Made by a program: the position numbers and the translations under genes. A stretch of DNA of 32,000 nucleotides from Dickeya solani IPO 2222 (GTDB taxonomy: Bacteria > Pseudomonadota > Gammaproteobacteria > Enterobacterales > Enterobacteriaceae): NCBI RefSeq assembly GCF_001644705.1, contig NZ_CP015137.1, positions 360,001-392,000 on the forward strand. The letters are read 5' to 3'. The notes below the pieces were generated by a model. It saw nothing but the letters and a program-made list of their open reading frames with translations. It did not search any database and was not told where the DNA came from. Positions 1-29,740 of the stretch are shown here, piece by piece (positions within the stretch are counted from its first letter, which is position 1; every line of letters begins with the position of its first letter).

Positions 1-428
1 AGCCCCAACTCCGCGGGCGATAACGACTCCGTCGACAACGAGGAGCGCGCCAGAGACGCCACATCCAGTTCAAACGCAACGGTGCCGGTAGTGTCCAGTT
101 CCGCGGTCACTTCACGGCCGCGTTTATCGAGCAGCAGCAGCGTCGGCGCCGAATCTTGCAGAATGTAGGACAGGCGTTCCTGCGGGTAATCCGGGTCGAG
201 CGGCACGTAGGCCCCACCTGCTTTGATGATCCCCATCAGGCCCACCACCATCTCGATACTGCGATCCAGACAGATGGCAACGCGATCGTCCGGTTTAACC
301 CCCTGCTGGCGTAAATGGTGCGCCAGTTGGTTGGACAAGGCATTCAGCTCTGCGTAGCTCAGTTCACGATCGCCAAAGCGCAGCGCCGTTGCCGACGGCG
401 TCAGTTTAACCTGCGCTTCGAACATCTG
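1..428 (-). other. Adenylation domain (N-terminal part only, motifs A1-A2); specificity residues lie outside the window
   Basis: aa ~565-706 read MFEAQVKLTPSATALRFGDRELSYAELNALSNQLAHHLRQQGVKPDDRVAICLDRSIEMVVGLMGIIKAGGAYVPLDPDYPQERLSYILQDSAP. Confidence 0.85.
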
Positions 429-2223: not shown

Positions 2224-5200
2224 TCACAGTCGAGTCTCCGCAAGCTCGATGGTTCTGGCCGCAAGGTCTGCCAGAATAGGCGTATCAAAAAGTGTGCGTA
2301 TCTCGATGCTGAGCCCTCTTCGGCGTAACTGTTCAATCAAACGCACGGCTAGCAGCGAATAGCCGCCGAGTTCAAAAAAGTGGTCCTGACGTCCGATCCG
2401 CTCGACACCCAGAAGTTCTTCCCAGATAGACGCCATGGTGATTTCCATACTGCCCTGTGGCGGAACATACGCGCGCCGGGCGAAGGACATCTCATCCGGC
2501 GGCACCAGAGCGTTGCGGTCTATCTTGCCATTCGGCGTCAGCGGTAAAGATTTGAGCGTCACGAAGGCGGCCGGGACCATATAATCCGGCAGCGCATCCT
2601 GAAGATGCTTACGTAATGCTTTACGGCTAAACAGGGTCTGTACCAGACCTTTGAGCGCCGCCGCGTGTTCCAGCGCCGGCAACGCATTCTCAGGCACGAT
2701 CCAATCGATCAAACAGGCGACCTCATTAACACCGGCTTCCTGTAACTTCTCCGCCACGGGCAGCGCGGATTCCGGCGTACCAATAAATGACAGCTCGCGG
2801 GTATAGCGCTTGAAAGCGAACTCCAGCATGCTGCGTTTATCCGCGCTGGGAAGCGTATCGAGGTGAATGTTCTGCTCTTTGAGCCAGCCGGAGAGTAAAC
2901 TGAGATGCCCTTCCAGATAATCAAGGAACGGCCCTTTCGCCTGTGCCAATACCTCGTTAAGGTTCTCCCCCAGGTAGGTATGAATCATCACCGTCACCGT
3001 GCCGGTACGGGGATCGAACCCCGCGTTTTCACGCGCCGTGCGGTATATTTCGATATTTTTAGCCAGCTTCTCGATATTCTGCGTGAGCATGTGGGTCAGC
3101 AAATTCGCCCCGCTGCGACCGGCATACTCAAAGGTTTCCGATGCACCGGCGGCGGTTACCCAAATCGGCAGTTGCTTTTGCACCGGAGCGGGGTAAATCC
3201 GTACTGAAATTTCATCCCCATGACTATCCCGGCGGGAAACGCTGCCGCCCTGCCACAGCGTTTTCAGTTCCTCAATGCCTTTATGCATCAATTCACGGCG
3301 CTCATCGTAATTCTGCGGCGCCAGGACAAAATCCTGCTTATTCCAGCCTGAAGCGACGCCGATGCCAACGCGGCCGTTCGACAGGTTGTCGAGTATCGAC
3401 CAGTCTTCCGCCACGCAGAGCGTATCGTGCAACGGCAACACCACGCTGCCGGGACGCAGCTGGATATGGCGTGTTCTGGCCAACAGCGAGGCGCTTAACA
3501 GCGCCGGATTGGCGAACAGCCCCCCGACGTGGTGGAAGTGACGTTCCGGCGTCCACACGGCGGTGAAACCGTGTTTATCGCCAAACTCCGCCACCTCTGC
3601 GTAATGGTTATAAGCCTGCACGGCATCGCTGCTGGCGCCGAAGAAGAACAGGCTAAAATCCAGGCTGTCACTGTCGGCCAATGCCTCTTCCACATACTCT
3701 TCGGTCACACCGGGAACCACATACGCCACCAGCCGCGTCTCCCCGGAGATATCCTCTCTGGCGACGACCACCGCTTCGCGCACCCAGGGATGGCTCAACA
3801 ACCGCGCTTCGATTTCGCCCAGTTCGATACGGTGCCCACGCAACTTCAGCTGATGGTCGGTACGCCCGAGGAAAATCAGGCGGCCATCGGCCATAAACTG
3901 CGCGAAATCCCCGGTACGATAGAGACGGGCCGCCGGATCGGTTGAGAACGGGTCGGGAATAAAACGCTCGGCGGTCAGCTCGGGACGCTGGTGATAACCA
4001 CGGGCAACCCCGTCACCACCGATATACAACTCCCCGATAGCGCCCATCGGCACCGGTTTGCCGTACCTGTCCAGCAGATAGACTTGCGTGTTGGCAATCG
4101 GGCGGCCAATCGACTGGTTGTATTGCGTGACGTCCTCTGCATTGACGCGATTACACGTTGACCACACCGTGGTTTCCGTCGGCCCGTAGAGGTTCCACAA
4201 TGACTCGCCGAAGGCATGCAGACGCACCGCCAAATCGCTGGGCAGCGCTTCACCGCCGCAAAGGATCTTCAGCTGCTTGTGCGGTGTGGCGTCGGTATCC
4301 ACCAGCAAGCGCCAGGTGGTTGGCGTGGCTTGCATGATGGTGATGTTCAGGGTGTGCAACAGGTTAAGCAGCGCGTGAGGATCCATCGCCTGACTGCGGC
4401 TCGCCAGCACAATCGACGCGCCCGTCATCAACGGCAGATACAGTTCAAGCCCGGCAATATCAAATGAGATGCTGGTGACCGAGAGCAAACAATCCTCAAC
4501 GCCGAGGTTGAATAGTGCCTGCATCCCCGTCAGAAAATTGACCACCTGACGATGCTCAACCATCACCCCTTTCGGCTTGCCGGTCGAGCCCGAAGTATAA
4601 ATCACATAAGCCAGGTGGCTGGCGTTGAGCGTCGCCACATCGGGGTTGCCGCCAGGCAGTGCTTCCCAACGTGCGCCATCACGCGCCAGATCGACCACCG
4701 TGATATCACTGCCGGCCGCAGCCCCAAAGACGTCGCGTCCACGCTGGTCAAGCACCAGTACCTTAGGCGTGGCATCCTCAAGAATATAGGCCAGCCGTGT
4801 GGCGGGATATTCAGGGTCGAGCGGCACGTAGGCCCCGCCGGCTTTGAGGGTCGCCAGCAAAGCGACCAGCATCGTTTCCGTGCGTTCCGTACACACCGCT
4901 ACGCGCGTATCCGGCCTCACCCCTTGGGCTATCAAATGGTGAGCAAGACGGTTGGCGCGCTGATTAAGCTCGGCATAACTGAGGCGAACGTTACCCATTT
5001 GCAGCGCCAGCGCCTGTGGTCGTTGTTCGACCTGCCGCTCAAACAGCTGGTGGATAGTCGCCGTCGCCGGGAACGGCACCGCGGTATCATTCCAGGTTTT
5101 CAGCAGGTGCCGGCGCTCTTCCGGCGGCAGAATATTGAGTTCATACAGCGGCATTGGCGCGGCTGCCGGAACCCTATCGGCTTCAAGCGCCGCCACCAGG

Positions 5201-8200
5201 CTACTGATACTCTGGTGGAAGTAGCCAAACAGGCGCGCACAAGAAAGCGATTCAATCGCCTGAACGCCAATATCAAACCCATCGCCGAAGTCATCGACAG
5301 AGACAGAGATCGGGTAGTTGGTGCGCTCTTCAAATCCGTGCCATACCACGCCATCAAATTCGATATCACCTAACACATCACTGTCGGTCGGGCGATTGCG
5401 GCGGTAGTTGAACACGGCGCTGAACATCGGCGTCGGCGCCACAATCCCACTACATTGTTGAGCCAGCGACAAGCTGGCATGTTCATGTTTTATCAGCGCG
5501 GTGAGGCGCTGATGCGTCTGGCGAACCGCATCGGCGGCATAACCCTCGCCGACATCAAGACGCAACGGCAGCGTATTGATGCAAGGCCCCATGATTTTAT
5601 CGCTGTTCTCACCGTGCATACGTCCGGACAGGACGGTACCGAACACCACCGTATCGCTGCCGCAGGCAGCGCTCAGGACCCGCGCCCAGCTCAAGTGGCA
5701 CAGACTACTCACGCTTACGCCAAGGCGGCGAGCCTGAGCGCGCAGCCGTTGAGCCAGCGGCGCTTCAAGCGGGCGCCGTGTTTCACTGATCCGCTGGCCT
5801 TTAAGGTGGCCGTTCTTGAGATTAAACGGCACCGACGGTTCGGTGATGTCCGCCAGCATGTCGGTAAAAAACGCCGATTGCTGTTGGGTATCGTGACGTT
5901 GCTGCAACCGCGCCACGTGATGACGAAACGGCAATGCCGCCGGCAAACGCGCGCCTTCGCCATTGAGGAATGCCTGAATGTCGGAGAGCAAAATCTGTAG
6001 TGAGGCAATGTCATCCACCAAATGATGGATATACATCAAGGCTTCCCAGCGGGCCTGTTCTTCATCATAGGCCACCACCATGTGTAGCAACGGCGGCTGC
6101 GTGAGGTCGATGCGGTTGACCTGAGGATCAACGCGCGCCTTCATCTGTTCAACGACCGGGCCATCCTGAGCATCAAAGGTGAGCTCTGCAACGTGCAAGC
6201 GCGCGTGGCGTAGCACGACCTGCACAGGCGTTTCTACCCCTTGCCAGATAAACGCGGTGCGCAAGATATCATGGCGCTCAACAACGTGTTGGATAGCCTC
6301 AAGATAGCGATCCAGGGTCTGCCGGTGCGTAAATGACAGATGACCACACTGAAGGTAAGGGTCGCCGGCTTCATCGAACAGATGGTGGAACAGAATGCCT
6401 TCCTGCAGCGGCGCCAGCGCATAGATATCCTGAATATTGGCGATGCCTCCAGGTATGCGGGTAACGATCTGGTCTATCTGCTGTTGAGAAAGCGACACTA
6501 ACGGGAAAAGCGCGGGATGAAGCGCGGTGGTCGCCGGCGTGACCACATTCTCCGGGATGACGAACGCCGGGGAGGCATCGTCCTCAAGCCTGATTTGCGC
6601 AGCAAGATCGGCCAAAACTGGATGAGCGAAGAGAGTGGGCACATCGGTATACAGTTTCTGCTCACGGAGCGCTGCCTGCAGTTGCATCGCCAGCAGTGAA
6701 TGCCCACCCAGTTCGAAGAAATTGTCCTGCCGCCCGACCTGATCAACGCCGAGCATTGTCCGCCACAGCTGCGCCAGAATAGATTCCGTACCGGCGTTCG
6801 GCGCTTCAAAGTCGCGCTGCACGTAAGCGCTATCGTCCGGTAGCGGCAAGGCCTTACGATCGATCTTGCCATTCGCCGTCAGCGGCAGCGATTCCATCAC
6901 CACAAACGCCGCCGGGATCATATAGTGGGGCAGTTGCGTGGCGAGCACCTCGCGCCATTGCGCAATCGCACCATTACCGCACGCCGCCTCTGGCACTACA
7001 TAAGCCACCAGACGGGCCTCGCCGCTATCCGGCGTAATGCCGATAACGGTAGCGTCTTTGATGTGCTCAAGCGCCGCAATACGCGACTCGATTTCACCAA
7101 GCTCAATGCGATACCCGCTCAGTTTGATTTGGTGATCGCGACGGCCAAGAAATTCAATACGACCATCGTCAAACCAGCGCCCGATATCACCGGTACGGTA
7201 GACTCTGGCTCCGGCAACCCAGGGATCGGCAATAAACTGCTGGGCCGTCAGTTCAGGGCGATTCATGTACCCCACCGCGACGCCCTCGCCGCCGATCCAG
7301 ATTTCACCCGCCATGCCCGGCGCGCAAAGCTGACCCAGATTATCGACCACGTACATACGGGTGTTGGCGATGGGCCGCCCAATACTCAGGCGAGTATCCT
7401 GGCTGTGCTCAAAACCACGCATCCATGCCGACGACATAATGGTGGTTTCCGTCGGGCCGTAACCATTGATGTAACGGCAGCGCTCGCTCCAGCGTTCAAT
7501 CAGCCCAGGCGTCGGCGCTGACCCCGCCGTCAGAATGGTCATGCCTTCAGGCACGCGTGCGGGATCTAAGTGCGTGAGATACGGCGGTGGGAAGGCCGAG
7601 AAACGAATGTCGTGTTCAACCATATACTCCGTCAACGCGGGCGGATTCTGAATCAACGCATTCGACAGCAGATGCAGTTCACAACCGCGCGTCAAGGTAC
7701 CGAAAATCTCGCCCGCTGAGGCATCAAAGGTATAAGGCGCGAACTGGGTGATCGGTTGCCCGGCGCTAAAAATCCCGATGTGTTCGCACCAGGCACAGAA
7801 ATTGATCAGGCTGCGATGCGCTATCTCTACGCCTTTCGGCGTGCCCGTGGTCCCAGAGGTATAGATGATATAAGCAATAGCGTGCGAATCGATGGCCTCA
7901 GAATGGCTATCCTCAGGCTGCTCAGCATCCGTTTGCGCCTGCTCCAGATAATCCTCAACCAACAGCAAGGTGCTGCTTTCGTCCTCGCTAAAACTCGACC
8001 GATCGGCCCGGCTGGTCAGCGTCCAGCGCACTCGCGCATCGTTAATAATGAACGCGCGACGCTCGCCCGGCGCATCCAGGCCGACAGGCACATAAGCAGC
8101 GCCCAGCTTGATGATACCCAGCATGGCCGCGATCAGGTTCGGCGTTTTATCCATACTCAGGACAATACGATCGCCCTGGGTCACGCCGACGCGGCGCAGC

Positions 8201-19600: not shown

Positions 19601-22600
19601 GCTCAGTAAATCGCCCAAGCTGCTCGCCACCACCGCGAGGCGTTCTGCCATGGCGTCGCGCCCGACCAGTGAAGAAAATGCCAGAGAGTCAAAACCGGGC
19701 GCCGTCTGCGGTTCATGCACCGCCTGACTGAGGAAGTTCACCATCCGCGCTACATACAGCGATAAACGTTCTTCGCTATCCGCCGAGAGCACGAACAGAC
19801 GCGGTTCACCACGATGTGCGGCGGCCGATGCAAGTTTTGACGCGTCGTCTTGCGGCGCGTCTTCTATCAGCACATGGGCGTTTGAACCACCCGCACCGAA
19901 GGCGCTCAGGCCGGCACGACGGGGATGATCGGCAGCCGACTCCCACGCCTCAAGCGCCTGCACCACACGGAACGGCGAGGCAGTGAAGTTAATTTTCCCG
20001 TTCAGCGTCTGTGAGTGCAGTGACGGCACGATCTTACGATGACGCATCTGTAGCAGGATTTTGGTCAACCCGGCGATACCGGCGGCGGACTCAAGATGCC
20101 CGATATTGCTTTTCACTGAACCTATTCGGCAGTGACCCGGCTGTCGTTCGTCGTTGAGCCCCCGTTGTGCATTGATACGCGAAAAGGCTTTGGCAAGCCC
20201 GGAGATCTCAATCGGATCCCCCAGCATCGTGCCGGTGCCATGCGCTTCAATGTAATCCAGTGACGCGGGGCTCCAGCCAGCACGCTCAAGTGCCGTGCTG
20301 ATAACGTTGCTTTGTGCCGCCTGATTCGGCACCGTAAAACCGCTGGTTTTGCCGCCGTGGTTGATGGCTGTGGCCTTGATCACGCCATAAATTTGGTCGC
20401 CATCCGCTATCGCCTGCTGCAACGGTTTAAGCAGCACCGCGCCCACGCCTTCCCCTGGGACATACCCATCGCCGCCTTCGCCGAAGGCCCGGCAACGCCC
20501 ATCGCTTGAAAGGAATTGGTTTTGCCCCAGTTGGTAATATTTCATCGGGTGCACGATCAGGTTGACGCCACCGGCTATCGCCATTTTACAGTCGCCGCTT
20601 TGGATCGCCTGACAAGCCAGATGTAGCGCGGTGAGTGACGACGAGCACATGGTGTCCAGCGCTACGCTGGGGCCATTCAGATTGAAATAGAATGAAACCC
20701 GGTTGGCTACCGATGAGTGCAACGACATGGCCCAGCCGGATTCGTGCTGTTTTTCCGTCGTTTCAATGCATTGATACTGCCCCCACATCACCCCGACATA
20801 CACACCGACCTGCGATTTGCTCAGTGCGTGACGCGAGTAGCCGGCATCCGAAACACACTCCCACGCGGTTTGCAGAAACAACCGTTCCTGTGGATCCAAC
20901 AGCTCCGCTTCACGAGGCGATATGTTGAAATATTGGCTGTCGAACTGATCAATATCATCGATAAATCCGCCCCATTTGCTGTAGACCTTGTTCTTAGGCC
21001 CCCGCACTGGGGAATAATGTTGGTGATAGCCCCAACGTGACAGCGGTATTTCGGCGATGCTGTCTACGCCGCCAGTGAGGTTGGCCCAGAATTCATCCAC
21101 GTTTTTGGCGCCCGGATAGCGGCCGCTCAGCCCGATAACCGCAATGTCATCTTTTACGCCAACCACGCCAACCGGTTCAGTGTCGCGCGACGCATTACGT
21201 CTCAGGGCATCAATACGCGACGTGTTCAGCAGATTGGCCAGCGTCGGGCGCGAAGCCGGCATCGGCGACGCGGCGTTGTGTTGAAGCGCGGGCTGCTGCG
21301 CGGCCTGTATCGCCTCGGCCCATTCGGCCAGCATCTGATAACGGTAGACGGCGGTGGCACTAACGCCGGTAAAACGCGCATCCAGCTCATGCTGTAGGCG
21401 AATAAGATTGATGGTATCCAACGGCCACTGCCAGAGCGGTGTCAGTGCAGAGTGGTTTGTCGCTGCCGAACCGACCGCCGCCGTCAAACTGTCAAATACC
21501 CCATCGCCTGTCGCCGATACCGGGTTTGCCGAACGGTCCGGTTCAGCAGCGGGCTCCGCAGCATGACTGACGTTTTGCTGCAACAGCGCTACCGGCGCTG
21601 ACGTGACGCTCGCCGTCGCGGGCTGCAAGGTGGCAACCTGATCGGGATAGCTCTCACAGAGAAAATCTGCCAGGGAGTCGATGTCCTGATATTCGTAGAA
21701 CAGTGTTTGCGACACCTCACCAAAGCGGGCTGCAAGCTTCCCGTTCAAGGCCAAAATCATCATCGAATCAAGGCCATAATCCGACAATTGTGTAGCAGGT
21801 CGCACCTCGCCGGCATCTAACCTGGTGACCTCAACAATGCTGGCTATCAGATAATCCCGCACGCCGTCACGTACTGAGCGGGCGCTCACAGGCTGCGCCT
21901 CACTCAGTTGCGCCACATTCGGTTGCACCCCACTCAGTTGCGCCCTACCCGGCGCTGGCTCTGCGGACGTTACGTCAGCAGGCGGCACCACCTGTTCGGG
22001 ATAGTTTTCAATCAGATAATCAGCCAGTGAAGCGAGGTCTTCGTATTCATAGAAGAGTGTTTGAGGAAGGCCATCAAAGGTTGCCGAAAGCTTCTCGTTC
22101 AAGCCCAGAATCATCATCGAATCAAGACCATAATTCGATAACAGCCCCGAGGCGGTCACGTCGCCGGCATCCAGTTTGGTCACGCTAATGACATGAGCAA
22201 TCAGCGTATTAACGACAGCCTCGCGCGAAGGGGGCGCGCCAGACTGCTGACGCGGCGTAGCGGCAATAACCGACGCCGCCGCAACTGGCGCGCTGCCTGC
22301 GCTCATTGGCGCGGCGGGCTTCGCATTCTGCGCTGCTCGTAATGATCTCATGCCCAGATGCGGCACCGCTTGTGTCTGCAACTGGGTGAGTCTTATCACC
22401 ACATTGCCGATGCTATCGAGCAAATCAATATTGTAGCTTGCCGTCGTCGCCGTCGAGCCGTGTGCGTTATCCCGGCGGGCGTAGGCATAGCAAACCCCGT
22501 CAATCGGCTTAAATATCTGCAACCTTGTCAGGGCAACCGGAACATCAAGCGTATTGGTCGTTGCGCTAAAGCCACCGATACCCAGCGCGGTACGTAATGC

Positions 22601-25600
22601 GCCATCCAGCAGTGAAGGCGGCAGGATAAATGGCTGCACCACCGGCGTTATCTGCAAGCCGTCAGGGAACTTCAGCTCCGCCAGTGCCTCTTCTGCATTG
22701 GCATACAAACACTCCAACACCTGAAAAGCCGGGCCGAGCGTAAAACCACGCTGCTTGAAAGCCACGTCGATATCGTTGCGCTGATAAACCTGGCCGTTAG
22801 TCAGCAGCCTTTGCAAGTTAGCAGGCTCTGGCTGAGGCGATGTCTCCTCACACAAGCGACCACTGCCATAAACATGGCGTTTCTCGCCTTCCGCCCGGTA
22901 AATCTCAAAATCGAGCCCACCCTGCGAGGGTGCCAGCGAGATAGCGATCTCTATTGCATCACGCTCTATTGCATCACTGGCGACCATAATGGGCTGACGC
23001 CACTTAATATTCTGCACCTGAGAAAGGACGGGCCTGTCGCCCGAAAGCGGCAGCGCAAGGCCTTGCAACGCCAGCTCGCTGGCGCTCAATGCCATCTCGA
23101 TGTAGGCGGCGCCGGGCAGAATACGGTTATCGCCAAGGCGGTGGTCGTTCAGTAAAAATTCGTCTGCGCGCAGTCGCTTGCGGAATGCTTGCGAGGCCAG
23201 AGTAGAAATATTGGCATCAATCAGCGGGTGCAGCGCAGCGGCGTCCGACACCACAGAACCCAAAATCGTGGCAGGTAAGGTCGGCGCCCAGCAGTCCTGG
23301 CGCTGGAACGCATAACCGGGCAGAGAGACACGCCGACGGGAATGCGCCGCATGCAACTGGCTCCATTCCACCACATGTCCATTGGCCCAGGCCTCGCCCA
23401 GTGCGCCAAGGCGCCCCTGCTTTATCCACTCAGCCAACGGCGGCGTTGAGGTTGCCTGACGCGCATTGTCTCGATGGCCGGTGATCAATCCCGATAATTG
23501 CTGTTGGGCATAGGCGCGCAGCATGTTGACCGCATCCGCCGCGACTTCTACGACAAACGCCAGTCGATATTCGTGTGCAACGCGTCCAACCTGGAGCGTA
23601 TAGGCAACATCCTGTAGCGACAGCTCCGGATGCTGTTCAATATCAGAATATTGTTCAATAAAGGTCGCAAGCTGCCCGGCCATGATGCGCAGCGCCGTTT
23701 CACGACGAGCAGAAAGCACGATCAACGCAGGCTTACCCTTGTCAACGGCAGCAGGCGGCGGCGCAATATATTCTTCGACGATCAGATGCGCGTTACTTCC
23801 CCCCGCCCCGAACGAACTAATGCCTGCGATACGCGGGATTTCTTTTGCAACGCGCTGACCATTCTCTTGCGTCACGTCAAGCACAGGGCGCAGCCATGGC
23901 TCCAGCGATTGCTGAAGACGGAATGGTCCACTCTGAAAGTCGATAAACGGATTAATCGCTTTTGACTGAATCGACGGCACCAGCGTCTGGTGTTTCATCT
24001 GCAGCAGCACTTTGGTCAATGCCGACATACCGGCGGCAGCTTCCAGATGACCAATATTGGCCTTGACCGAGCCGATGGCGCAGTATTTGGCATTCTCTCC
24101 GGCGGTCGAAAAGGCCTTATTCAACCCGCTGATTTCAATCGGATCGCCAAGTTTGGTGCCCGTACCATGCGCTTCGACATAACTGATATGACGCGGATTA
24201 ACATTAGCCGTCTCCAGCGCATCAACGATCAACTCAGCCTGACGTTTCGCGTTAGGAACCGTAAAACCGGAGGTTTTACCGCCGTGGTTGACCGCCGTAC
24301 CACGAATGATGCCATAGATATGGTCACCGTCTTCCCGGGCCTGAGACAGCGGTTTAAGCACCACCGCCCCTACCCCTTCTCCCGGTACATACCCCGTGCC
24401 GCCCTCACCAAAACTGCGGCAGCGACCGTCCGAAGAGAGGAAGTGCATATTGGATAACAGATGATACTTATAAGGGTGCAGCGACAGGTTGACGCCGCCT
24501 GCAATGGCAACCGGGACATCGCCGCTGCGAATGGCATGGCAGGCAATATGGATAGCCGTCAATGACGATGAACAGGCCGTATCCAGCGCCATACTGGGGC
24601 CGGAGAAGTTAAAGAAGTGCGAAACACGGTTCGCTACCGACCAATAAGATGAATGAGAGGTCGTCCACTCGTCTACGGGACTGGTGATGGCATGAAGCTG
24701 GTAATCCCCCCACATCATGCCGACATAGACGCCGACGCGGTTTTCACGCCCTACTTGCAAGGGTGCGAGCTTGTCTGCCGTATATCCAGAATCTTCTATG
24801 GCATGAGTGACGGTTTCAAGGAACAGCCACTCATTCGGGTCCATGATTTCCGTTTCTTTCGGGGAAATATTGAAATAACGGAGATCGAAGCGTTCTACGT
24901 CAGAAAGGAATCCTCCCCAACGACTATAACTTTTCCCCGGCGTTGCGGCGCCTTCCTGAAACCAGCGTGCGTCCCAGCGTTCAGACGGAACATCGATAAT
25001 GCAGTCACGCCCTTGAGTCAGATTGCTCCAAAACTGATCGAGATTATCCGCCTGGGGGTAACGCCCGGCGATACCGATAATGGCAATATCGTCATCGTTT
25101 ACGACACGCTGCGATCCCTGCAACCGTTGCGCCGGCGAAACCGCACGAACCCCATCAGAAGCCGACAATGCGGCGGTGACAGCGGGCTTTACAACCGTGT
25201 TCGCCGACGCCGTACCCCGCAGGCCATGACAGGCCTCATGACAGTTCTCAAGCAGGAAGCGACTAAGCTCTTCCATGGTTTGATATTCAAAGAACAACGT
25301 CATCGGCAACCCGCTGCCGAATGTTGTTTTCAACGCATTGACCAGTTCAATAACCACGACCGAATCGAAGCCATAGTCACGAAAGAAACCATTACGCTCA
25401 AAGTACGGCGGGATTTGTAATTTTCTGGCAAACAAGTCGGACAAATACCGAATAACGACATCCTGTAGCGAGTGGCTGTCGTCAGCATCGGGGGCGCTCA
25501 ACACGTCATGCACAGGCGCAATATCGACAACGCCCAGAACCGCCTCAATACGCGCCGCCTCTCCAGGCATCACCACAATCTGAGAAGCCTGGCTTTGCAG

Positions 25601-28600
25601 GGCATAGTCAAAAATAGCGATACCGTCTTCGGTCAGCAGCGGAACAATCCCGAACTGGCTCTTCAGAAAGCCCTCTTCTTTATCAGTAAGGCGCATACCG
25701 CCGTCTTTCCAATAGGGCCAGTTCAGAGACAGCGTTTTACCGCTACGTTCACCCTGCTGTTGCAGTGCGTTACGCTGATAAGAGAAATAATCCTCGAAGG
25801 CATTACCAAAGGCATAGTCGCATTGACCCATATTGCCTAAGACGCCGGTGACGGAAGAAAAGAGCGCAAAGAAGTCGAGCGGCTGATCGCGTGTGGCGTC
25901 ATCAAGCAGCCAGGTGCCGATTGCCTTCGGGGTGATGACCCGCCCAAAGGCCTCGCTGCTTTTACGCAGAATAAAGTTATCTTCGATGACGCCGGCAGAA
26001 TGGATGATACCGTTCAGCGTGCGGTCCGATGCGCGGATCGCGGCGATCAAACCCTGAACACTATCAGGATCGCTAATGTCACACGCCAGATAAATGGCCT
26101 TGCCACCCCGTTCATTAAGCTCATCAAGTTGCTGTTGCCGCTTTTCATCCAGCGCGGAGCGCCCGCTCAGATAGACGGTGGCGTCATAGCATGAGCACAG
26201 GAAACGGGCAAAAATCAGCCCTAAAGCGCCTAACCCACCGGTAATCAGGTAGGTTCCCTGCTGGCGCAGAGAAGCCGGGGCGGATACCGATAGGTTCACT
26301 GAATCAGCCACCTTCGCGCTCAACGCTGAACGAGCATGCGCGGATAACTGAGCATCCGTGACAAAGCGGCGCACCAGACGAGTCCCCTGCACATAACGCA
26401 CGTCGGCATCTTTGGATACGTCGCTGAATTCGGTTTTGAGCAACGTCAGGATCGCAGTGCCCGTCTCTTTTTCGCCATCAATAACCGGGTCGCAATGAAC
26501 AACATGGCCAATATAGGCCGGTTTTTCGACACGTAAAGTACGGTAGAAACCACTGATAGCGGAGATATCCGGCACGCTCTCGCTGGCGAGATAGAAATGG
26601 ACAAACCGAACCTTTTTGACCTTACGCATCAGCGCCTTAGTCAGCGCGAAGAGGCTATGGGGGCCACGACTCAGGCGATCAACAAAATCATCGCCGGCCT
26701 GTTGCGTATTGACCCACAGCACCTGCTCAAACGTTGCTCCCCGCGACAACAGCGCATCCACCGCTGCAATGAAGTCATCGCTATTGCCCGGACGAACCAA
26801 CGCGCGATCCGGCTCGCGATCCACATCCGGCGTGGATGCAAACTGGATTCGTTGCACTTGAGGCGGATTTTCCGACTGCGCGATGAGGTTTGCGAACCAG
26901 TCGACATCCTGCTCACTGCCCACCAGCACAACCTGCTTCATGGGCACATCGGCCTCTAACACATTTTTCTCAATCCAGTATGGCTGATAGAGGTGTACGG
27001 TTTCAGACAGCGTAAGCGGTGAATGTTCGGCTTTCGCCTGATCGGCTACAGCAAGGCTGTCATCGAGAACGCGCAAGCTTAAGCCGCGGAATATCAGCGC
27101 GACGAGTTCAGGGTTGCTGGCATCGCTGACGTGAATATCAACCTTGAATACACCATCGCGGATAGGCTTCTCGCCTGACAGGGTGATCGTTGACGTCATG
27201 GCTGAACTGCAAGGATGTAATAGCTCCAATCCCTCCAGAGAGAATGGAATGACCATCGCCCCCGGCTCATTCTCCGGCCGCAATGCGCGCAGCATTTCGG
27301 TCGCCCAGACAACCGCGGCCTGCAAGGCGCCATCCGCCAAAGACGGATGAATGACAAAGTCCGCGCTATGCGCATCAGGCAGTACCAGATCTGCGACACA
27401 GGCATGTTCATCGAACATGATCTGGCTGATAGACCTCAGGCCTACGCCGTAGCACATCTGCAAACTATCAAGCAGTTGATAGCAGGCAACCGCATCGCGC
27501 GCGTGAGCATCGTCGGCCAATACCGCTGCCGGCATAGCAGGAAGTGCATCCCCGGAAAACCCTATAGTCCCCCGGCAGTAAAGCGTTTGATCGTTACCAA
27601 GAACCTGAAATAACCATGATTTGCCGGGCTCATGCGGATCAAGCTGAATGTCTATATCCGAAGCCGCGTCGTGAAACTCCAGCGGCCTTAACCAGGCCAC
27701 CTGGGAGAAACGTAATGTATCGCCATCTTTTAAATCAATAGCATCAGTGAAGGCGGCACGGACTAGTTCCAGATATGCCACCCCCGGCAGTATTGTCTGC
27801 CCGCCGATCCGATGACCGGCAATAAAAAACTCATCGCCCTGAAGCAGGGCCTTATAATGAGAACTCCCAATGTTCATGACACGGTGACGCTGGGCACGCA
27901 AGACGGCACGCTGCGAACCGGCCTTATCGTTTTGGCTAATCCAAAAATGATTGTGGATAAATGGGTAACCAGGAAGCGCAATACGTTGCGGACGAGCCCC
28001 CGCAAATAGCCGGGACCAATCCAATGGCACACCATGCTCATAATATTCACGCAGTTGTTGCAAAGACCGTTTCACCGCCGCGGCATCGGCTTGATTAATA
28101 GCATCAAGTAGGGCGGCGCCTTCAACACGGGCTTTTTCCACTTCATCCGCGGCATGCTCTTTCAAATCCAACGGGCCTTGCTCAACCGCCTTTTCTAACG
28201 CCTGAATAATCTTCTGAACATCACGCCCCACACAGCCATAGCGATAAGCAAAGTGATCGCGGCGAGTCAATAATGTCGCACTCACATCACGCAGTGATAC
28301 GTCTGGATGCTCACTCAACCACTGGATCAAATCTTTTTGGCGTTGCAACAGTGCCGCCGGGCTTTTTGCAGAAAGCGCAATGAGATACTCATTACGTTTC
28401 GCAGACTTGCCAGTCGCTTGCTGACCGCCCACAGACTCAGGGGCTTCTTCTAATACTATGTGGGCATTAGTCCCCCCGAATCCGAACGAACTCACCCCCG
28501 CACGACGCGGTGTATTAGCGTCAATACGCTGCCAGTCAACGGCTTCATCAACGAAGAAGAAAGGCGTCGAGGTCACGTCAATTTTAGGATTGAGAGCAGA

Positions 28601-29740
28601 GAAATTGCGTAACGGAGGCAGTTTACGGTGTTTAAACGCTTGTAATACTTTGATGACACCCGCCACACCGGCAGCCGCTTCGAGGTGACCAATATTGCTC
28701 TTGATGGACGTCACGCCGCAGAAAGCCTCATCCAGCGCGATTCCCTGTTGTTGAGCGAGCGTGCTAAACGCTTTGGTAAGCCCGTCGAACTCAATCGGAT
28801 CACCCTTCGGCGTCCCTGTTCCATGCGCCTCAACCAAACCAATAGAACGAACAGGTACACCGGCGTGCGTATTCGCGGCAATAATCACATCAGCCTGCGC
28901 TTCGGCACTTGGGTAGGTGAGCGTGTAGGTGGTGCCACAATGGTTAATGGCACTGCCTTTGATGACTCCGTGAATAACGTCACCGTCAGCCAGCGCGTTA
29001 TCTAATGGCTTAAGTAATAAGACGCCTGCCCCTTCTCCACGGACATAACCATCAGCGCTGCTATCAAAAGAGTGGCAGGCACCAGTAGGCGATAACATTC
29101 CCATTTTGGCAAAAGACTGATGCCGGGTGGACGTTAAAATAAGATTAACACCACCGCTAATAGCAACTTCACAGTCTCCATTCGTGATTGCCTGAATAGC
29201 GCTGTGAATAGCGTTTAATGAACTTGAGCAGGCGGTATCAATGGCAACACTGGGGCCATGAAAGCCAAAGAAATGTGAAATACGGTTAGCGATAATAGAG
29301 GTTGCAGTACCGGTGGAATGATGTGCTTCTATTGGCGCATTGGCATTTTCCTGTAGTTCTTTATAATCGTTATTGAAAACACCAATAATAACGCCTACTT
29401 TACTCCCCCGCAGCGTTGACGGAGGTATCCCCGCATCTTCCAAACAGGACCAGGTAAGCTCCAACATGATCCTCTGTTGTGGATCCATGGTTTCTGCAAC
29501 TTTAGGAATAACACCAAAGAATTGGTTATCAAAACAATCAACGTTATTAACAAAGGCGGCCCATCGTGTTTCGCTGGCATCAGGCCACTGTAAAGACTTT
29601 CGGCTATATGACACCGCATCGTTGTGAGCGTCAGAAATTTTAGAGACCGAATTACGGCGATGAATAATATTATCCCAAAAATCATTATAGTTGTTCGCAT
29701 CAGGGAAACGGCAAGAAATCCCTATAATTGCAATATCCAT
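13664..29740 (-). CDS. Trans-AT type I polyketide synthase, 5,358 aa, four KS-containing modules
   Basis: A single 16,077-nt ORF. It has four KS Cys motifs, three HxxxG...P DH motifs, two TGGxGxLG KR cores and five carrier-like domains. The KS-to-DH spacers are only ~180-190 aa with no GHSxG, so there is no cis AT. The protein starts directly with a KS (MDIAIIGISCRFP). Confidence 0.97.
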   Translation of the reverse strand: MDIAIIGISCRFPDANNYNDFWDNIIHRRNSVSKISDAHNDAVSYSRKSLQWPDASETRWAAFVNNVDCFDNQFFGVIPKVAETMDPQQRIMLELTWSCLEDAGIPPSTLRGSKVGVIIGVFNNDYKELQENANAPIEAHHSTGTATSIIANRISHFFGFHGPSVAIDTACSSSLNAIHSAIQAITNGDCEVAISGGVNLILTSTRHQSFAKMGMLSPTGACHSFDSSADGYVRGEGAGVLLLKPLDNALADGDVIHGVIKGSAINHCGTTYTLTYPSAEAQADVIIAANTHAGVPVRSIGLVEAHGTGTPKGDPIEFDGLTKAFSTLAQQQGIALDEAFCGVTSIKSNIGHLEAAAGVAGVIKVLQAFKHRKLPPLRNFSALNPKIDVTSTPFFFVDEAVDWQRIDANTPRRAGVSSFGFGGTNAHIVLEEAPESVGGQQATGKSAKRNEYLIALSAKSPAALLQRQKDLIQWLSEHPDVSLRDVSATLLTRRDHFAYRYGCVGRDVQKIIQALEKAVEQGPLDLKEHAADEVEKARVEGAALLDAINQADAAAVKRSLQQLREYYEHGVPLDWSRLFAGARPQRIALPGYPFIHNHFWISQNDKAGSQRAVLRAQRHRVMNIGSSHYKALLQGDEFFIAGHRIGGQTILPGVAYLELVRAAFTDAIDLKDGDTLRFSQVAWLRPLEFHDAASDIDIQLDPHEPGKSWLFQVLGNDQTLYCRGTIGFSGDALPAMPAAVLADDAHARDAVACYQLLDSLQMCYGVGLRSISQIMFDEHACVADLVLPDAHSADFVIHPSLADGALQAAVVWATEMLRALRPENEPGAMVIPFSLEGLELLHPCSSAMTSTITLSGEKPIRDGVFKVDIHVSDASNPELVALIFRGLSLRVLDDSLAVADQAKAEHSPLTLSETVHLYQPYWIEKNVLEADVPMKQVVLVGSEQDVDWFANLIAQSENPPQVQRIQFASTPDVDREPDRALVRPGNSDDFIAAVDALLSRGATFEQVLWVNTQQAGDDFVDRLSRGPHSLFALTKALMRKVKKVRFVHFYLASESVPDISAISGFYRTLRVEKPAYIGHVVHCDPVIDGEKETGTAILTLLKTEFSDVSKDADVRYVQGTRLVRRFVTDAQLSAHARSALSAKVADSVNLSVSAPASLRQQGTYLITGGLGALGLIFARFLCSCYDATVYLSGRSALDEKRQQQLDELNERGGKAIYLACDISDPDSVQGLIAAIRASDRTLNGIIHSAGVIEDNFILRKSSEAFGRVITPKAIGTWLLDDATRDQPLDFFALFSSVTGVLGNMGQCDYAFGNAFEDYFSYQRNALQQQGERSGKTLSLNWPYWKDGGMRLTDKEEGFLKSQFGIVPLLTEDGIAIFDYALQSQASQIVVMPGEAARIEAVLGVVDIAPVHDVLSAPDADDSHSLQDVVIRYLSDLFARKLQIPPYFERNGFFRDYGFDSVVVIELVNALKTTFGSGLPMTLFFEYQTMEELSRFLLENCHEACHGLRGTASANTVVKPAVTAALSASDGVRAVSPAQRLQGSQRVVNDDDIAIIGIAGRYPQADNLDQFWSNLTQGRDCIIDVPSERWDARWFQEGAATPGKSYSRWGGFLSDVERFDLRYFNISPKETEIMDPNEWLFLETVTHAIEDSGYTADKLAPLQVGRENRVGVYVGMMWGDYQLHAITSPVDEWTTSHSSYWSVANRVSHFFNFSGPSMALDTACSSSLTAIHIACHAIRSGDVPVAIAGGVNLSLHPYKYHLLSNMHFLSSDGRCRSFGEGGTGYVPGEGVGAVVLKPLSQAREDGDHIYGIIRGTAVNHGGKTSGFTVPNAKRQAELIVDALETANVNPRHISYVEAHGTGTKLGDPIEISGLNKAFSTAGENAKYCAIGSVKANIGHLEAAAGMSALTKVLLQMKHQTLVPSIQSKAINPFIDFQSGPFRLQQSLEPWLRPVLDVTQENGQRVAKEIPRIAGISSFGAGGSNAHLIVEEYIAPPPAAVDKGKPALIVLSARRETALRIMAGQLATFIEQYSDIEQHPELSLQDVAYTLQVGRVAHEYRLAFVVEVAADAVNMLRAYAQQQLSGLITGHRDNARQATSTPPLAEWIKQGRLGALGEAWANGHVVEWSQLHAAHSRRRVSLPGYAFQRQDCWAPTLPATILGSVVSDAAALHPLIDANISTLASQAFRKRLRADEFLLNDHRLGDNRILPGAAYIEMALSASELALQGLALPLSGDRPVLSQVQNIKWRQPIMVASDAIERDAIEIAISLAPSQGGLDFEIYRAEGEKRHVYGSGRLCEETSPQPEPANLQRLLTNGQVYQRNDIDVAFKQRGFTLGPAFQVLECLYANAEEALAELKFPDGLQITPVVQPFILPPSLLDGALRTALGIGGFSATTNTLDVPVALTRLQIFKPIDGVCYAYARRDNAHGSTATTASYNIDLLDSIGNVVIRLTQLQTQAVPHLGMRSLRAAQNAKPAAPMSAGSAPVAAASVIAATPRQQSGAPPSREAVVNTLIAHVISVTKLDAGDVTASGLLSNYGLDSMMILGLNEKLSATFDGLPQTLFYEYEDLASLADYLIENYPEQVVPPADVTSAEPAPGRAQLSGVQPNVAQLSEAQPVSARSVRDGVRDYLIASIVEVTRLDAGEVRPATQLSDYGLDSMMILALNGKLAARFGEVSQTLFYEYQDIDSLADFLCESYPDQVATLQPATASVTSAPVALLQQNVSHAAEPAAEPDRSANPVSATGDGVFDSLTAAVGSAATNHSALTPLWQWPLDTINLIRLQHELDARFTGVSATAVYRYQMLAEWAEAIQAAQQPALQHNAASPMPASRPTLANLLNTSRIDALRRNASRDTEPVGVVGVKDDIAVIGLSGRYPGAKNVDEFWANLTGGVDSIAEIPLSRWGYHQHYSPVRGPKNKVYSKWGGFIDDIDQFDSQYFNISPREAELLDPQERLFLQTAWECVSDAGYSRHALSKSQVGVYVGVMWGQYQCIETTEKQHESGWAMSLHSSVANRVSFYFNLNGPSVALDTMCSSSLTALHLACQAIQSGDCKMAIAGGVNLIVHPMKYYQLGQNQFLSSDGRCRAFGEGGDGYVPGEGVGAVLLKPLQQAIADGDQIYGVIKATAINHGGKTSGFTVPNQAAQSNVISTALERAGWSPASLDYIEAHGTGTMLGDPIEISGLAKAFSRINAQRGLNDERQPGHCRIGSVKSNIGHLESAAGIAGLTKILLQMRHRKIVPSLHSQTLNGKINFTASPFRVVQALEAWESAADHPRRAGLSAFGAGGSNAHVLIEDAPQDDASKLASAAAHRGEPRLFVLSADSEERLSLYVARMVNFLSQAVHEPQTAPGFDSLAFSSLVGRDAMAERLAVVASSLGDLLSQLEQYRQDGAAKQLFRGRVAGSSERLDTILEGRQLDELVTGLVQERQLLRLGRLWTTMLDVNWQQVAPLLFADHAVRRVSFPSLPLMMRSHWLALPSEPGESHRVKSLHPLIDENTSTLSQQKFIKQLTGQEPYLRDHVVGSADARVILPGSAYIEMMHAAGQLAIGNEWAVGAIRNLMWMNAIEVDDEPVEVEIDLAHSDGESVQVAICNRHTDVLSLEAELVYRPKTTEIADEWIDLDALRNRGKHESDQAAIYADFAKMGFAYGPSYQVTRERYRFADSALSHLCLPDAVRSADAFYLHPSLLDGALRTCLAVGLEPSDYSTPIVPFFLGELEFRHPLGTECYAYVTPAQSSVSGQSLGGPIQKHDITLVDTTGRVLARLKDFAARTLESDTSTAQPMTSQDVQYYAYEWQASPLPETTSVTAVSSAAIQVLVLSDDDALAEALRALYGDSARVIAVTQANAFAQHDACRFSADMQSQASVQTLCEQLAAQQMWPTHIVHAIGADKHFDDFPAVGVAPLLHAGLQSLRNLFVALETVTPGQALRCVNVYTAPPDQVEPQHDAASGYARSLSTINHRFELFTLRSDADSAAALASHIHLEFVPRPAPIAGLELAYRSGKRYQRQLGEIVPPKTDGSTSDERLNFVRHGHYLITGGAGKLGLLVANYLASRYQARIVLSGRSAQPGDAVQQQLVAMREQGAEVRYIAADVALEGQADALIAQAKAEFGALDGVLHCAGVASATPMTALQDAEFYALIGPKIDGLVALDRATAQEPLSVFVNFSSVSAVLGDLGSGAYAAGNRFMDSHAVWRSNLVKKGRRAGQTISINWPLWASGQMNIEQEDATLFAFSGMAALDQEAGLIALERALLEQRPELLIVVGDRNKIARALRIQADEVARSAPPARVNVAASKQHAVEPTRPSDSAYMQSENALRERISTITKLPAGDIAADATFEQLGMDSIMLMELRAVLEKEYDGLPKTAPFEFNTTAKLAGYLCERYGATQESQQVSAETPPRRTAATVNSHHAGAAAAAPYVKRAMPNAPTNTLGSHAARSSLSTSVNAASDAVAIIGVAGEFPGAENLADFWADIQAGKESLTTIPNARWAISPDDNGNPRYVNRGGFLNNVNVFDPEMFRMSSDEASRLDPQVRVLLRSAWHALENAGYTPSALTSQQVGVYVGAMNEDFTWVMAELYARTGRYPGAGSVVSELANRISFLMNLRGPSFCVATTCASSLTSVHIARKAILGGECDMALAGGINLSLHPSKYMLLQEMNVLSSDGKEHTFDERANGLIPSEGSGMVVLKRLSTALADGDHIYGVLRGSSIGHAGTGAGQYLPNLAVMEETAVRALDEARIDVNELTYIESHGAATELGDPIELKALSNALRRQTHAQHFCALGTKANLGHMEAASGICSLIKVLLSMQHGRLSPCVNLDRVNTSFEHETSAFLFPREAQEWRTNARGTRLAGINAYGMGGSTAFVVVESPEDVLMRNSDQTLVARDNAENSPQIVVLSAHRAERLAAYAVEMRDFIKQQGSALHLADLAYTSQIGRVTLDHRLAIVATSIDDLLTKLECFIAHPASEHSKLDIYRGNVRETKDVPQLIAGEAGKHFIHVLVQTQQLAKVATLWSRGCDIDWSLLHHEAVRRRVAFPGYPFAKEPCDLYAALRLDAPQRQTRHNELAALPAPDAAPTPTVPQAWFAGPRNERNVDALDDEQLQAFWVEQLHAQEPHAQDEVGALMASVLLGGAEVQDAEASAPQTLSVERRIDRDTVAALQICTQRQAISVETLMAAGWALLTNRHARGKYSQFGLIRHVNDEHLQMIPARIQVVGRHKTALWLKGVETQLEKCFDHTGATLERIERWVGDAPLFDSAVALLTDGDEAGLSEAISALFAVQPGLHVALVVSVEAHSVLLRLDCRGMDTQIAQLDQLLEQFVILLEGIANHPDKNPAALPMRSKGEGRKAFLKTLEKLNQQDQTP
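13766..14473 (-). other. Truncated condensation-like domain at the PKS C-terminus (C-terminal lobe only, no HHxxxDG)
   Basis: aa ~5090-5325 read LQAFWVEQLH..., TLMAAGWALLTNRH, QFGLIRH, MIPARIQV, APLFDSAVALL, LHVALVVSVEAHSVLLRLDCRG and QLDQLLEQFVILLEGIANHP. This is the same layout, motif for motif, as the N-terminus of the NRPS at 8362-9084. Confidence 0.65.
15146..16405 (-). other. KS4: divergent ketosynthase with the Cys-His-His triad retained
   Basis: VATTCASSL (Cys4611 codon 15908-15910), IESHGAATELGDP, KANLGHMEAASG. The usual C-terminal SFGxGGxNAH is replaced by AYGMGGSTAF, and SSDGRCRxFGEGGxGYVPGEG by SSDGKEHTFDERANGLIPSEG. Confidence 0.85.
16595..16819 (-). other. ACP3
   Basis: FEQLGMDSIMLMELRAVLEKEY; the Ser4341 codon is at 16718-16720, checked against the DNA. 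Confidence 0.9.
17096..17656 (-). other. KR3 catalytic subdomain
   Basis: YLITGGAGKLGLLVA, NFSSVSAVLGDLGSGAYAAGNRF (catalytic Tyr). The stereo-determinant position reads HCAGVASATP, with no LDD Asp. A putative structural subdomain lies upstream, at about aa 3810-4025. Confidence 0.85.
18431..19282 (-). other. DH3
   Basis: LHPLIDENTS..., RDHVVGSADARVILPG (His3518 codon 19187-19189, with four extra residues between Gly and Pro relative to HxxxGxxxxP), and HPSLLDGALR (Asp3687). Confidence 0.8.
19853..21151 (-). other. KS3 (trans-AT type, intact triad)
   Basis: DDIAVIGLSGRYPGA, ALDTMCSSSL (Cys3032 codon 20645-20647), EAHGTGTMLGDP, KSNIGHLESAAG, FGAGGSNAH. Confidence 0.93.
21296..21517 (-). other. 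ACP-like domain 2c with Thr in place of the phosphopantetheinylated Ser (probably inactive)
   Basis: WQWPLDTINLIRLQHELDARFTGVSATAVYRYQMLAEWAEAI; the Thr2776 codon ACC is at 21413-21415. It sits 117 aa after Ser2659, matching the 118-aa spacing between ACP2a and ACP2b. Confidence 0.65.
21641..21877 (-). other. ACP2b
   Basis: QLSDYGLDSMMILALNGKLAARFGEVSQTLFYEYQDIDSLADFL; the Ser2659 codon is at 21764-21766. Confidence 0.9.
21995..22225 (-). other. ACP2a
   Basis: LLSNYGLDSMMILGLNEKLSATFDGLPQTLFYEYEDLASLADYL; the Ser2541 codon is at 22118-22120. Confidence 0.9.
22370..23233 (-). other. DH2 (in a module that has no KR)
   Basis: LHPLIDANIS..., NDHRLGDNRILPGAAYIE (His2200 codon 23141-23143), PPSLLDGALR (Asp2379). 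Confidence 0.8.
23768..25096 (-). other. KS2 (trans-AT type, intact triad)
   Basis: DDDIAIIGIAGRYPQA, ALDTACSSSL (Cys1723 codon 24572-24574), EAHGTGTKLGDP, KANIGHLEAAAG, FGAGGSNAH. Confidence 0.93.
25241..25471 (-). other. ACP1
   Basis: FFRDYGFDSVVVIELVNALKTTF; the Ser1460 codon is at 25361-25363, checked against the DNA. Confidence 0.9.
25691..26263 (-). other. KR1 catalytic subdomain (B-type signature)
   Basis: YLITGGLGALGLIFA, HSAGVIEDNF (Asp1254 at the LDD position), FSSVTGVLGNMGQCDYAFGNAF (catalytic Tyr). A putative structural subdomain spans about aa 900-1160. Confidence 0.85.
27062..27892 (-). other. DH1
   Basis: FFIAGHRIGGQTILPGVAYLE (canonical HxxxGxxxxP; His643 codon 27812-27814), HPSLADGALQ (Asp803). 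Confidence 0.88.
28445..29740 (-). other. KS1, located at the extreme N-terminus with no loading domain, of a different sequence type from KS2 and KS3
   Basis: MDIAIIGISCRFPDA starts at residue 1. AIDTACSSSL (Cys171 codon 29228-29230), EAHGTGTPKGDP, KSNIGHLEAAAG, FGFGGTNAH. It has CHSFDSSADGYVRGEGAG where KS2 and KS3 have CR(S/A)FGEGG(T/D)GYVPGEGVG. Confidence 0.92.

Follow-up and report, generated by a model that had tools for sequence, protein, structure and literature searches.

The sol operon in Dickeya solani IPO 2222

The DNA analysed here, called the window throughout, is a stretch of 32,000 nucleotides from Dickeya solani IPO 2222 (NZ_CP015137.1, positions 360,001 to 392,000 of the forward strand). 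It almost certainly holds solA to solF and part of solG, which make up the 5' three quarters of the operon for solanimycin (sol) biosynthesis, on an island beside pgsA-glyW that was acquired by horizontal transfer. Seven co-directional genes run on the minus strand from position 29740 past coordinate 1. The first, solA (13664-29740), encodes a trans-acyltransferase (trans-AT) polyketide synthase (PKS) of 5358 aa, as identified from its open reading frame (ORF), Pfam matches, motifs and the published length and domain string. It is followed by solB (12678-13667), encoding an extended short-chain dehydrogenase/reductase (SDR) of the NAD-dependent epimerase/dehydratase family with 329 aa, and solC (11382-12626), encoding a pyridoxal phosphate (PLP) enzyme of the alpha-oxoamine synthase (AOS) family with 414 aa, which the literature calls an aminotransferase. 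Further downstream lie solD (11088-11357) for a free-standing acyl carrier protein (ACP) of 89 aa, solE (9130-11016) for a free-standing AT-AT protein of 628 aa, counted from the ATG at 11016, and solF (2224-9126) for a nonribosomal peptide synthetase (NRPS) of 2300 aa. The seventh gene, solG (<1-2120), is cut by the window edge and is represented by 706 of its 1163 codons.

The junctions between these genes measure, in order, -4 nt (an ATGA overlap at 13664-13667), 51, 24, 71 (with the solE ATG at 11016), 3 and 103 nt. A preliminary description made from the sequence alone had given the same seven genes and the same junctions, and the gene calls agree with it exactly. It had also seen no hairpin followed by a U-tract between the genes and had read the locus as a single operon. 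A consensus terminator scan of positions 1-14000 gave no junction site on the minus (coding) strand, where every site was intragenic; the same region contains 17 terminator-like sites compared to 14.1 +/- 3.3 in shuffled sequences. The single operon is borne out by published reverse transcription PCR products across every sol intergenic region (PMC9765074).

The sol cluster, with 12 genes on 40.3 kb, was defined in D. solani MK10 (Matilla et al. 2022, PMC9765074; Murphy et al. 2023, PMC10204066), and the locus is thus already characterised, having been published since 2022-2023, and is not new. The published table lists SolA with 5,358 aa, SolB with 329, SolC with 415, SolD with 89, SolE with 628 (AT-AH), SolF with 2,300 (A-P-C-A-ox-P) and SolG with 1,163 (PMC9765074). 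The six complete proteins of the window (5358, 329, 414, 89, 628 and 2300 aa) all lie within one residue of these values, SolC with 414 instead of 415 aa being the sole mismatch, and the gene order solA-solB-solC-solD-solE-solF-solG and the SolA domain string also agree with the published data. BLASTN of positions 1382-22626 gave 100.000% identity over 21,245 bp to GCA_016404945.1, which is D. solani CH9635-1 (PMC8226965), and 99.986% identity over the same 21,245 bp to CM001839.1 / GCA_000365285.1, which is strain MK10 itself (PMC10204066). The exact SolC protein was found on contigs in 58 index blocks, and all 4 matches listed are D. solani assemblies. A scan with SolC of representative genomes (one genome per species) gave no identical copy, with relatives at 28-90% identity, 36 of these at 56-90%. 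No match to solB-solE was obtained by megablast in a plasmid collection, which, for a locus on the chromosome, carries no information.

Nothing was found that argues against the identity of the locus as sol. That it might be a new, uncharacterised hybrid cluster can be dismissed, since its nucleotides are all but identical to those of D. solani genomes, among them that of MK10, from which sol was described, and since it agrees gene by gene with the published table. The novelty implied in the preliminary description therefore fell once the locus proved colinear with, and practically identical to, a characterised cluster whose product has been assigned, a finding which that description had itself named as decisive, and the solanimycin-type Dickeya clusters that it had suggested for comparison turned out to include the locus itself. 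What the window shares with the cluster of MK10 is thus the gene order, the protein lengths, the SolA domain string, the sequence over 21.2 kb and the pgsA-glyW island context. It differs in holding only solA to solF and codons 1-706 of solG, and in its solF sequence. In the MK10 reference assembly, short runs at window positions ~8784-8793 are longer by 3 G bases in all (GG and G), and this splits solF into gene calls of 113 and 2183 aa, whereas the 2300-aa frame is intact in the window and in CH9635-1, as published. In two further D. solani assemblies, solA, solB and solE are split in a comparable way, perhaps through indels of the assembly.

In the published cluster, the genes that come next, beyond coordinate 1 of the window, are solH (NRPS with a thioesterase, TE), solI (P450), solJ (metallo-hydrolase), solK (hydratase) and solL (MATE exporter) (PMC9765074); the D. 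solani loci used for comparison reach 10 kb past solC. Their position would explain the absence of a release domain and an exporter from the window, and the cluster is incomplete here, as had been noticed from the sequence.

Published product and mutant phenotypes

For MK10, solanimycin A with m/z 963.480 and solanimycin B with m/z 979.474 have been published. The partial structure consists of an N-terminal 2-amino-3-hydroxy-hexadecahexaenoyl group (Ths), glycine or alpha-hydroxyglycine, five consecutive dehydroalanines (Dha) and a C-terminal group with valine and acetate-derived carbons. The product predicted in the preliminary description, a reduced polyketide joined to amino acid units, plausibly as an amino-alcohol/peptide hybrid, corresponds well to the vicinal amino alcohol of Ths attached to a peptide. 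A literature search for newer structural work on solanimycin led to the 2023 paper only.

Deletions of all 12 genes have been published. In-frame deletions of solA, solB, solC, solD, solF, solG, solH and solI abolish the antifungal activity, whereas solE, solJ and solL are dispensable; the ΔsolI mutant is inactive and also forms an orange pigment (PMC9765074). A C15 aminomethyl ketone with m/z 230.154 has been reported as shunt product of ΔsolB, and tetradecahexaenal accumulates in ΔsolF, the authors presuming that SolB makes this aldehyde. XCMS metabolomics of the solC and solI knockouts detected nothing that accumulates in isolable amounts. When 2H- and 13C-labelled glycine was fed, the label was found in the Gly and Dha residues and not in the acyl group at the N-terminus, and the authors rejected glycine as source of C1, C2 and nitrogen (PMC10204066). 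Regulation of sol by ExpIR, Vfm, RsmA and ArcZ-SlyA has also been published.

SolC belongs by sequence to the alpha-oxoamine synthase family

One enzyme of the cluster, SolC, looks misassigned in the literature, where the 2022 paper names it an aminotransferase. Judged by its sequence, SolC is a full-length AOS with all catalytic residues, in line with the family assignment made in the preliminary description, which PDB, NCBIfam and the catalytic motifs all bear out. All 50 PDB sequence matches at E <= 1e-10 are members of the AOS family, with no transaminase among them. The best of these were a Thermus BioF/2-amino-3-ketobutyrate CoA ligase (KBL) (4e-64), the Sphingobacterium serine palmitoyltransferase (SPT) (3.9e-63) and E. 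coli KBL (1e-60), and 5-aminolevulinate synthase (ALAS), CqsA and SphA were also matched. The best alignments span residues ~47-413 (E 4e-64 to 1e-36). Against NCBIfam, the models for bioF, KBL and SPT were equidistant at 280-289 bits, all below their equivalog cut-offs, and no transaminase model was matched; weak secondary matches to threonine aldolase and GntG aldolase models (32-33 bits) were also seen. The catalytic residues are kept as His152 (NSHAS, 150-154), Asp228 and His231 (DDAH, 228-231), Lys262 (STCSK, 258-262) and the carboxylate-binding Arg (ERLR, 382-385). SolC hence combines full-length homology with the PLP lysine, the stacking histidine, the Asp/His pair and the arginine that characterise the BioF/KBL/SPT/ALAS family. 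To our knowledge, the enzymes characterised in this clade make or break C-C bonds. No paper that connects solanimycin with 'oxoamine' was found in a literature search.

The locus had been called sphingoid-base-type in the preliminary description, which holds as a mechanistic analogy but not as membership. The SPT models gave 282, 257 and 176 bits with SolC, compared to cut-offs of 640, 500 and 670, and a sphingoid base would be a decarboxylated amino-diol, whereas published solanimycin keeps the carboxyl group as an amide. A genuine sphingolipid locus consisting of SPT, ACP and reductase was rejected on the basis of the NCBIfam cut-offs, the PKS/NRPS context and the carboxylate-retaining product.

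SolB matches the Pfam Epimerase family (1.1e-35) and carries GxxGxxG together with Y142xxxK146. Its nearest NCBIfam models, all below cut-off, are HpnA, SdmB and OleD, the last being a 2-alkyl-3-oxoalkanoate reductase, and a weak likeness to cinnamoyl-CoA reductases and thioester reductase domains was also seen. SolD, encoded directly next to solC, showed no match in Pfam; it contains the motif GVDSIE (with DSI) and matches ACP models of NCBIfam at 8.6e-09, below cut-off.

The polyketide synthase and the peptide synthetases

From Pfam and motifs, the domain order of SolA is KS1-DH-KR-ACP-KS2-DH-ACP-ACP-(pseudo-ACP)-KS3-DH-KR-ACP-KS4-half-C, with ketosynthase (KS), dehydratase (DH), ketoreductase (KR) and condensation (C) domains, compared to the published KS-DH-KR-T-KS-DH-T-T-KS-DH-KR-T-KS (PMC9765074). 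All 4 KS domains have the Cys/His/His set (TTCASS / SHGAAT / NLGHME in KS4), and there are 3 DH and 2 KR domains, module 2 being without KR in Pfam. Acyl_transf_1 gave no match in either half of SolA, and a free-standing AT is present in the cluster as SolE, which confirms the trans-AT type proposed in the preliminary description. SolE contains two Acyl_transf_1 stretches in Pfam and matches fabD of NCBIfam at 6e-113; its domain 1 shows GHSLG/AAFHS and its domain 2 GYSLG. The first domain is a malonyl-type AT and the second probably an acyl hydrolase, as the second has been read in the literature (AT-AH, PMC9765074). An in-frame GTG at 11049, 33 nt upstream of the ATG, would give a protein of 639 instead of 628 aa; the ATG is the start behind the published size and is used in the gene calls of D. 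solani assemblies.

Four ACPs of SolA were detectable by Pfam, and a fifth carrier-like stretch was missed. This degenerate third carrier-like domain of module 2 (21296-21508, minus strand; SolA aa ~2745-2815) follows the tandem ACPs and is missing from the published domain string. It has no PP-binding match in Pfam, yet its local alignment to ACP2b scored 71 compared to 23.4 +/- 3.9 in shuffles (z = 12). The phosphopantetheine site reads LDT instead of LDS, and in 18 related loci, where the domain is kept, the Ser position is occupied by T, A or P and never by Ser. As it cannot hold a phosphopantetheine arm, a functional fifth ACP is ruled out, and the domain is probably a structural or docking element.

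The NRPS line was correctly recognised beforehand, with intact core motifs of the condensation, adenylation (A) and thiolation (T) domains (HHxxxD; A3, A4, A5 and A10; GGxS). The window contains 2 T domains, 3 A domains, of which the third is truncated where the window ends, 2 half-C domains and 2 complete C domains with HHxxxD. SolF is arranged as half-C, A1, T, C, A2 with an inserted luciferase-like monooxygenase, and T. The part of SolG in the window comprises a TubC_N docking domain (Pfam, 3.9e-08), a condensation domain (5.5e-44) and the beginning of an A domain, which matches AMP-binding at positions 1-104 of 384; the full protein has 1163 aa in D. solani assemblies, as published. SolG has been described as a single serine module, proposed to iterate five times (PMC10204066).

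The domain inventory of the preliminary description thus largely stands, namely 4 KS, 3 DH, 2 KR, the free ACP, the AOS, the SDR, 3 A, 2 T, 2 C and the luciferase-like monooxygenase. Its two free ATs are instead the two domains of one protein, the second an acyl hydrolase in the literature. Its five cis carriers hold as far as the fifth is homologous to ACP2b, but this one bears Thr at the Ser site. Its two truncated C domains are well supported at the SolF N-terminus and weakly at the SolA C-terminus. The former (8374-9090) matches Pfam Condensation with E 1.4e-12 at profile positions 191-453 only, and the latter (13760-14461, minus strand) falls below cut-off (E 0.0089, 15.2 bits, profile 192-439 of 456) and has been described as a domain whose function is not known and which is commoner in NRPSs (PMC10204066). 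Both regions match only the C-terminal half of a condensation domain (~191-453) and are without the HHxxxDG half, and they might form a PKS-NRPS docking pair.

The specificity code of SolF-A1 reads DAGALAGIMK. Asp235 and Lys517, hallmarks of alpha-amino-acid substrates, are kept, and the pocket is Phe-like with smaller residues. The code of A2, DILQLGLVWK, is glycine-like. The flavin monooxygenase inserted into A2 (2728-3654, minus strand; SolF aa 1825-2133; Pfam Bac_luciferase 6.6e-43) has been assigned the alpha-hydroxylation of the glycyl residue that leads to solanimycin B (PMC10204066). SolF shares with the MtaG/MelG-type modules of myxothiazol and melithiazol a glycine-activating A domain into which a flavin monooxygenase is inserted for hydroxylation at the glycyl alpha-carbon. 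It differs in the site of the insertion, which lies between A8 and A9 and not between A4 and A5 (PMC10204066), and in that the hydroxyglycine stays in solanimycin B with no chain cleavage to an amide.

A cassette shared with related loci

In the scan of representative genomes with SolC, synteny of PKS, SDR, AOS, ACP, AT and NRPS genes was found in many taxa. The AOS identity is 83-90% in a Serratia metagenome-assembled genome (MAG), Rouxiella, Candidatus Pantoea multigeneris and Erwinia, and 66-77% in Lysobacter, Xanthomonas, Collimonas, Paraherbaspirillum, Thermomonas, Cellvibrio, Gynuella and others. The first A domain downstream of the cassette keeps the code DA[GA]A[LM]A[GA][IV][LM]K in Lysobacter, Xanthomonas, Collimonas, Paraherbaspirillum, Thermomonas, Cellvibrio, Nevskiaceae and Alcanivoracaceae, with an overall identity to SolF-A1 of only 33-46%. 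Later A domains of these loci have divergent codes, e.g. DVWHFSLIDK, DAWTVAAVCK and DVFWLIGSFK (Ser-, Phe-, Gly-like and unknown). These comparisons suggest that the related loci represent a family of orphan lipopeptides which share a polyenyl amino-acid starter.

The cassette and the A-domain code, at about 14.0-16.1 kb in most of the related loci, are kept across Gammaproteobacteria and Betaproteobacteria. A different arrangement was seen in a Burkholderiales MAG, Chitiniphilus and Lautropia, with SolC homologues of 56-64% identity beside NRPS genes and no PKS, SDR, ACP or AT homologue within 10 kb; there, the AOS may be used in a different context.

Proposed route to the amino-alcohol unit

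As SolA has too few modules for the product, it would have to be partly iterative, and together with SolE, which would supply the malonyl units, it would build a tetradeca-hexaenoyl thioester. We propose that SolC as PLP enzyme, SolB as NAD(P)H reductase and the free ACP SolD turn this hexaenoyl thioester into Ths. In a KBL-like reaction, SolC would join the ACP-bound hexaenoyl thioester to a glycine equivalent with formation of the C2-C3 bond and release a free 2-amino-3-oxo acid. In the manner of OleD or threonine dehydrogenase, SolB would then reduce this acid to free Ths, which SolF-A1 would adenylate and load. SolF would take up Ths and add glycine, part of which the embedded flavin monooxygenase would hydroxylate, and SolG would add serine repeatedly, leading to the five dehydroalanines. 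Attachment of the valine/polyketide tail, tailoring and export would fall to SolH to SolL, outside the window. For its central part, with SolC as a KBL-like AOS and not a transaminase, reduction by SolB and loading of free Ths by SolF-A1, we regard the chances as nearly even, the proposal being drawn from sequence comparison and the published mutants.

Several observations speak for an AOS step. The aminomethyl ketone of ΔsolB would arise because an unreduced 2-amino-3-oxo acid decarboxylates spontaneously, and OleD, a reductase of free 2-alkyl-3-oxo acids, is among the nearest named models of SolB. Both the essential free ACP SolD, with its gene beside solC, and the otherwise unexplained SolF-A1 would be given a role. 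Moreover, an amino-acid-type A domain that travels with the cassette is predicted by a route via the free amino acid and not by a thioester hand-off. Alanine or serine as donor for the AOS were rejected, since m/z 230.154 (C15H19NO + H) leaves room, once decarboxylation has occurred, only for the addition of a one-carbon aminomethyl unit.

The closest precedents for such a pair are KBL with threonine dehydrogenase, and the OleA/OleD logic, in which an AOS-family enzyme likewise adjoins an extended SDR and the unstable 2-amino-3-oxo acid yields the aminoketone by decarboxylation if it is not reduced. SolC and SolB differ from them in falling below every equivalog cut-off. Compared to KBL, SolC would use a C14 polyenoyl-ACP instead of acetyl-CoA and would work in the biosynthetic direction, with a glycine donor that the authors' labelling does not support. 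SPT with 3-ketosphinganine reductase, and SphA of sphingofungin biosynthesis, share with the sol system the combination of AOS, ketoreductase and adjacent ACP that leads to a vicinal amino alcohol on a long acyl chain. SolC is distant from SPT, with 282 bits against the 640-bit equivalog cut-off, and from the fungal AOS SphA, with a match of only E 1e-22; the sol product is also an NRPS-loaded amino acid instead of a membrane lipid, with an acyl chain from a trans-AT PKS. SphA keeps a carboxylate, as solanimycin does. Sphingofungin biosynthesis has been linked to aminomalonate in the literature.

Other results weigh against an AOS step. Labelled glycine was absent from the N-terminal group (PMC10204066), and if this holds, the donor would not be free glycine, with aminomalonate or a threonine-derived unit as alternatives. 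The loss of activity and the orange pigment of ΔsolI fit a role of the P450 in making the acyl unit. In ΔsolF, tetradecahexaenal accumulates and not free Ths, which requires either a retro-aldol cleavage of Ths or the reduction of a stalled thioester. The A-domain specificity codes were read by hand from motif positions and not with a dedicated predictor. The authors themselves propose malonate extension, oxidation by SolI and transamination by SolC (PMC10204066).

In this published route, module 2 of SolA extends the C14 chain with malonate to a C16 beta-keto thioester, SolI oxidises C-2, SolC transaminates, SolB reduces the beta-keto group, and the chain reaches SolF as a thioester, directly or via SolD. 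It comes from the group that made the mutants (PMC10204066) and accounts for an N-terminal group that labelled glycine leaves unlabelled, for the missing KR of SolA module 2, and for a solI gene that is essential and whose deletion gives an orange pigment. The aminomethyl ketone of ΔsolB is compatible with it as well, as it could also be formed by hydrolysis and decarboxylation of a 2-amino-3-keto thioester. However, SolC falls into the AOS clade and matches no transaminase family, SolF-A1 is left without a role although its amino-acid-type code is kept together with the cassette in different genera, no specific role falls to the essential free ACP SolD, and no intermediate of the P450 and transaminase steps has been observed. 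We therefore consider the published route a serious possibility, although a rather doubtful one.

An aldolase route, in which SolB would reduce the hexaenoyl thioester to tetradecahexaenal as on-pathway intermediate and SolC would add a glycine unit like a threonine aldolase or transaldolase to give Ths, is improbable. It would explain the aldehyde in ΔsolF, with the SolB origin presumed by the authors, and agrees with the weak similarity of SolB to cinnamoyl-CoA reductases and thioester reductase domains and with the matches of SolC to threonine aldolase and GntG aldolase models (32-33 bits); a transaldolase with threonine as donor would also escape glycine labelling. Nevertheless, ΔsolB still makes the aminomethyl ketone, so that SolC must act on the thioester and not on an aldehyde made by SolB, and for SolC the AOS models beat the aldolase models by about 250 bits.

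Returning to SolC as an AOS, the joint reading that it uses a glycine equivalent other than free glycine, and that PKS-SDR-AOS-ACP-AT-A1 forms a portable starter-unit cassette, is put forward tentatively, as a possibility somewhat short of an even chance.

Upstream region and island border

The region upstream of solA (29741-31648) is AT-rich (39-47% GC) and contains the solA promoter region, an ORF of 167 aa and an integrase-like remnant. In this region, 17 promoter-like sites were found compared to 6.7 expected, and direct binding of SlyA at the solA promoter has been reported (2026 preprint). The orphan ORF between glyW and solA (30804-31307, plus strand) encodes a predicted multi-pass membrane protein without NCBIfam match, which may be island cargo, and the short integrase-like remnant ORF (31312-31488, minus strand) has no NCBIfam match either.

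The gene for tRNA-Gly(GCC), glyW (31649-31724, minus strand), was found by ARAGORN and by the Rfam tRNA model (69.1 bits). It lies downstream of the 3' end of pgsA, the E. coli annotation under the match being pgsA and tRNA-Gly, and marks the chromosomal border of the sol island. The literature describes sol as an island gained by horizontal transfer at the glyW/cysT/leuZ site and bordered by integrase remnants, and the surroundings in the window (pgsA 3' end, glyW and integrase-like remnant) agree with this; cysT and leuZ, which follow glyW in E. coli, were not found in the window. The tRNA gene is followed at 31470-31612 (minus strand) by a GC-rich stem-loop flanked by runs of A and T, aaaaaaagggccgaaaggccctttttt, and after it, just before the integrase-like remnant, lie short tandem copies of gtgtagtgccgt. 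The Rfam scan upstream of solA detected only the tRNA, plus a sub-threshold STnc420 match that coincides with this stem-loop and T-run.

Significance

As a discovery the locus carries no weight, as the cluster, its operon structure, regulation and distribution and the partial product structure have already been published. Nevertheless, solanimycin is a potent antifungal with a partial structure and proposed early biosynthetic steps, and D. solani is a potato pathogen. What remains of value is a testable revision of the step that forms the N-terminal amino alcohol, with SolC as a putative AOS, SolB as an OleD-like reductase and an A1 code that travels with them across classes of Proteobacteria. 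To this can be added the recognition of a widely shared starter-unit cassette, and of orphan clusters related to sol for which a lipo-amino acid of the same kind is the probable starter. If the assignment of the AOS step is true, orphan NRPS lines of other genera, Lysobacter, Xanthomonas, Collimonas and Cellvibrio among them, would have a cassette for polyenyl beta-hydroxy-alpha-amino acids in common.

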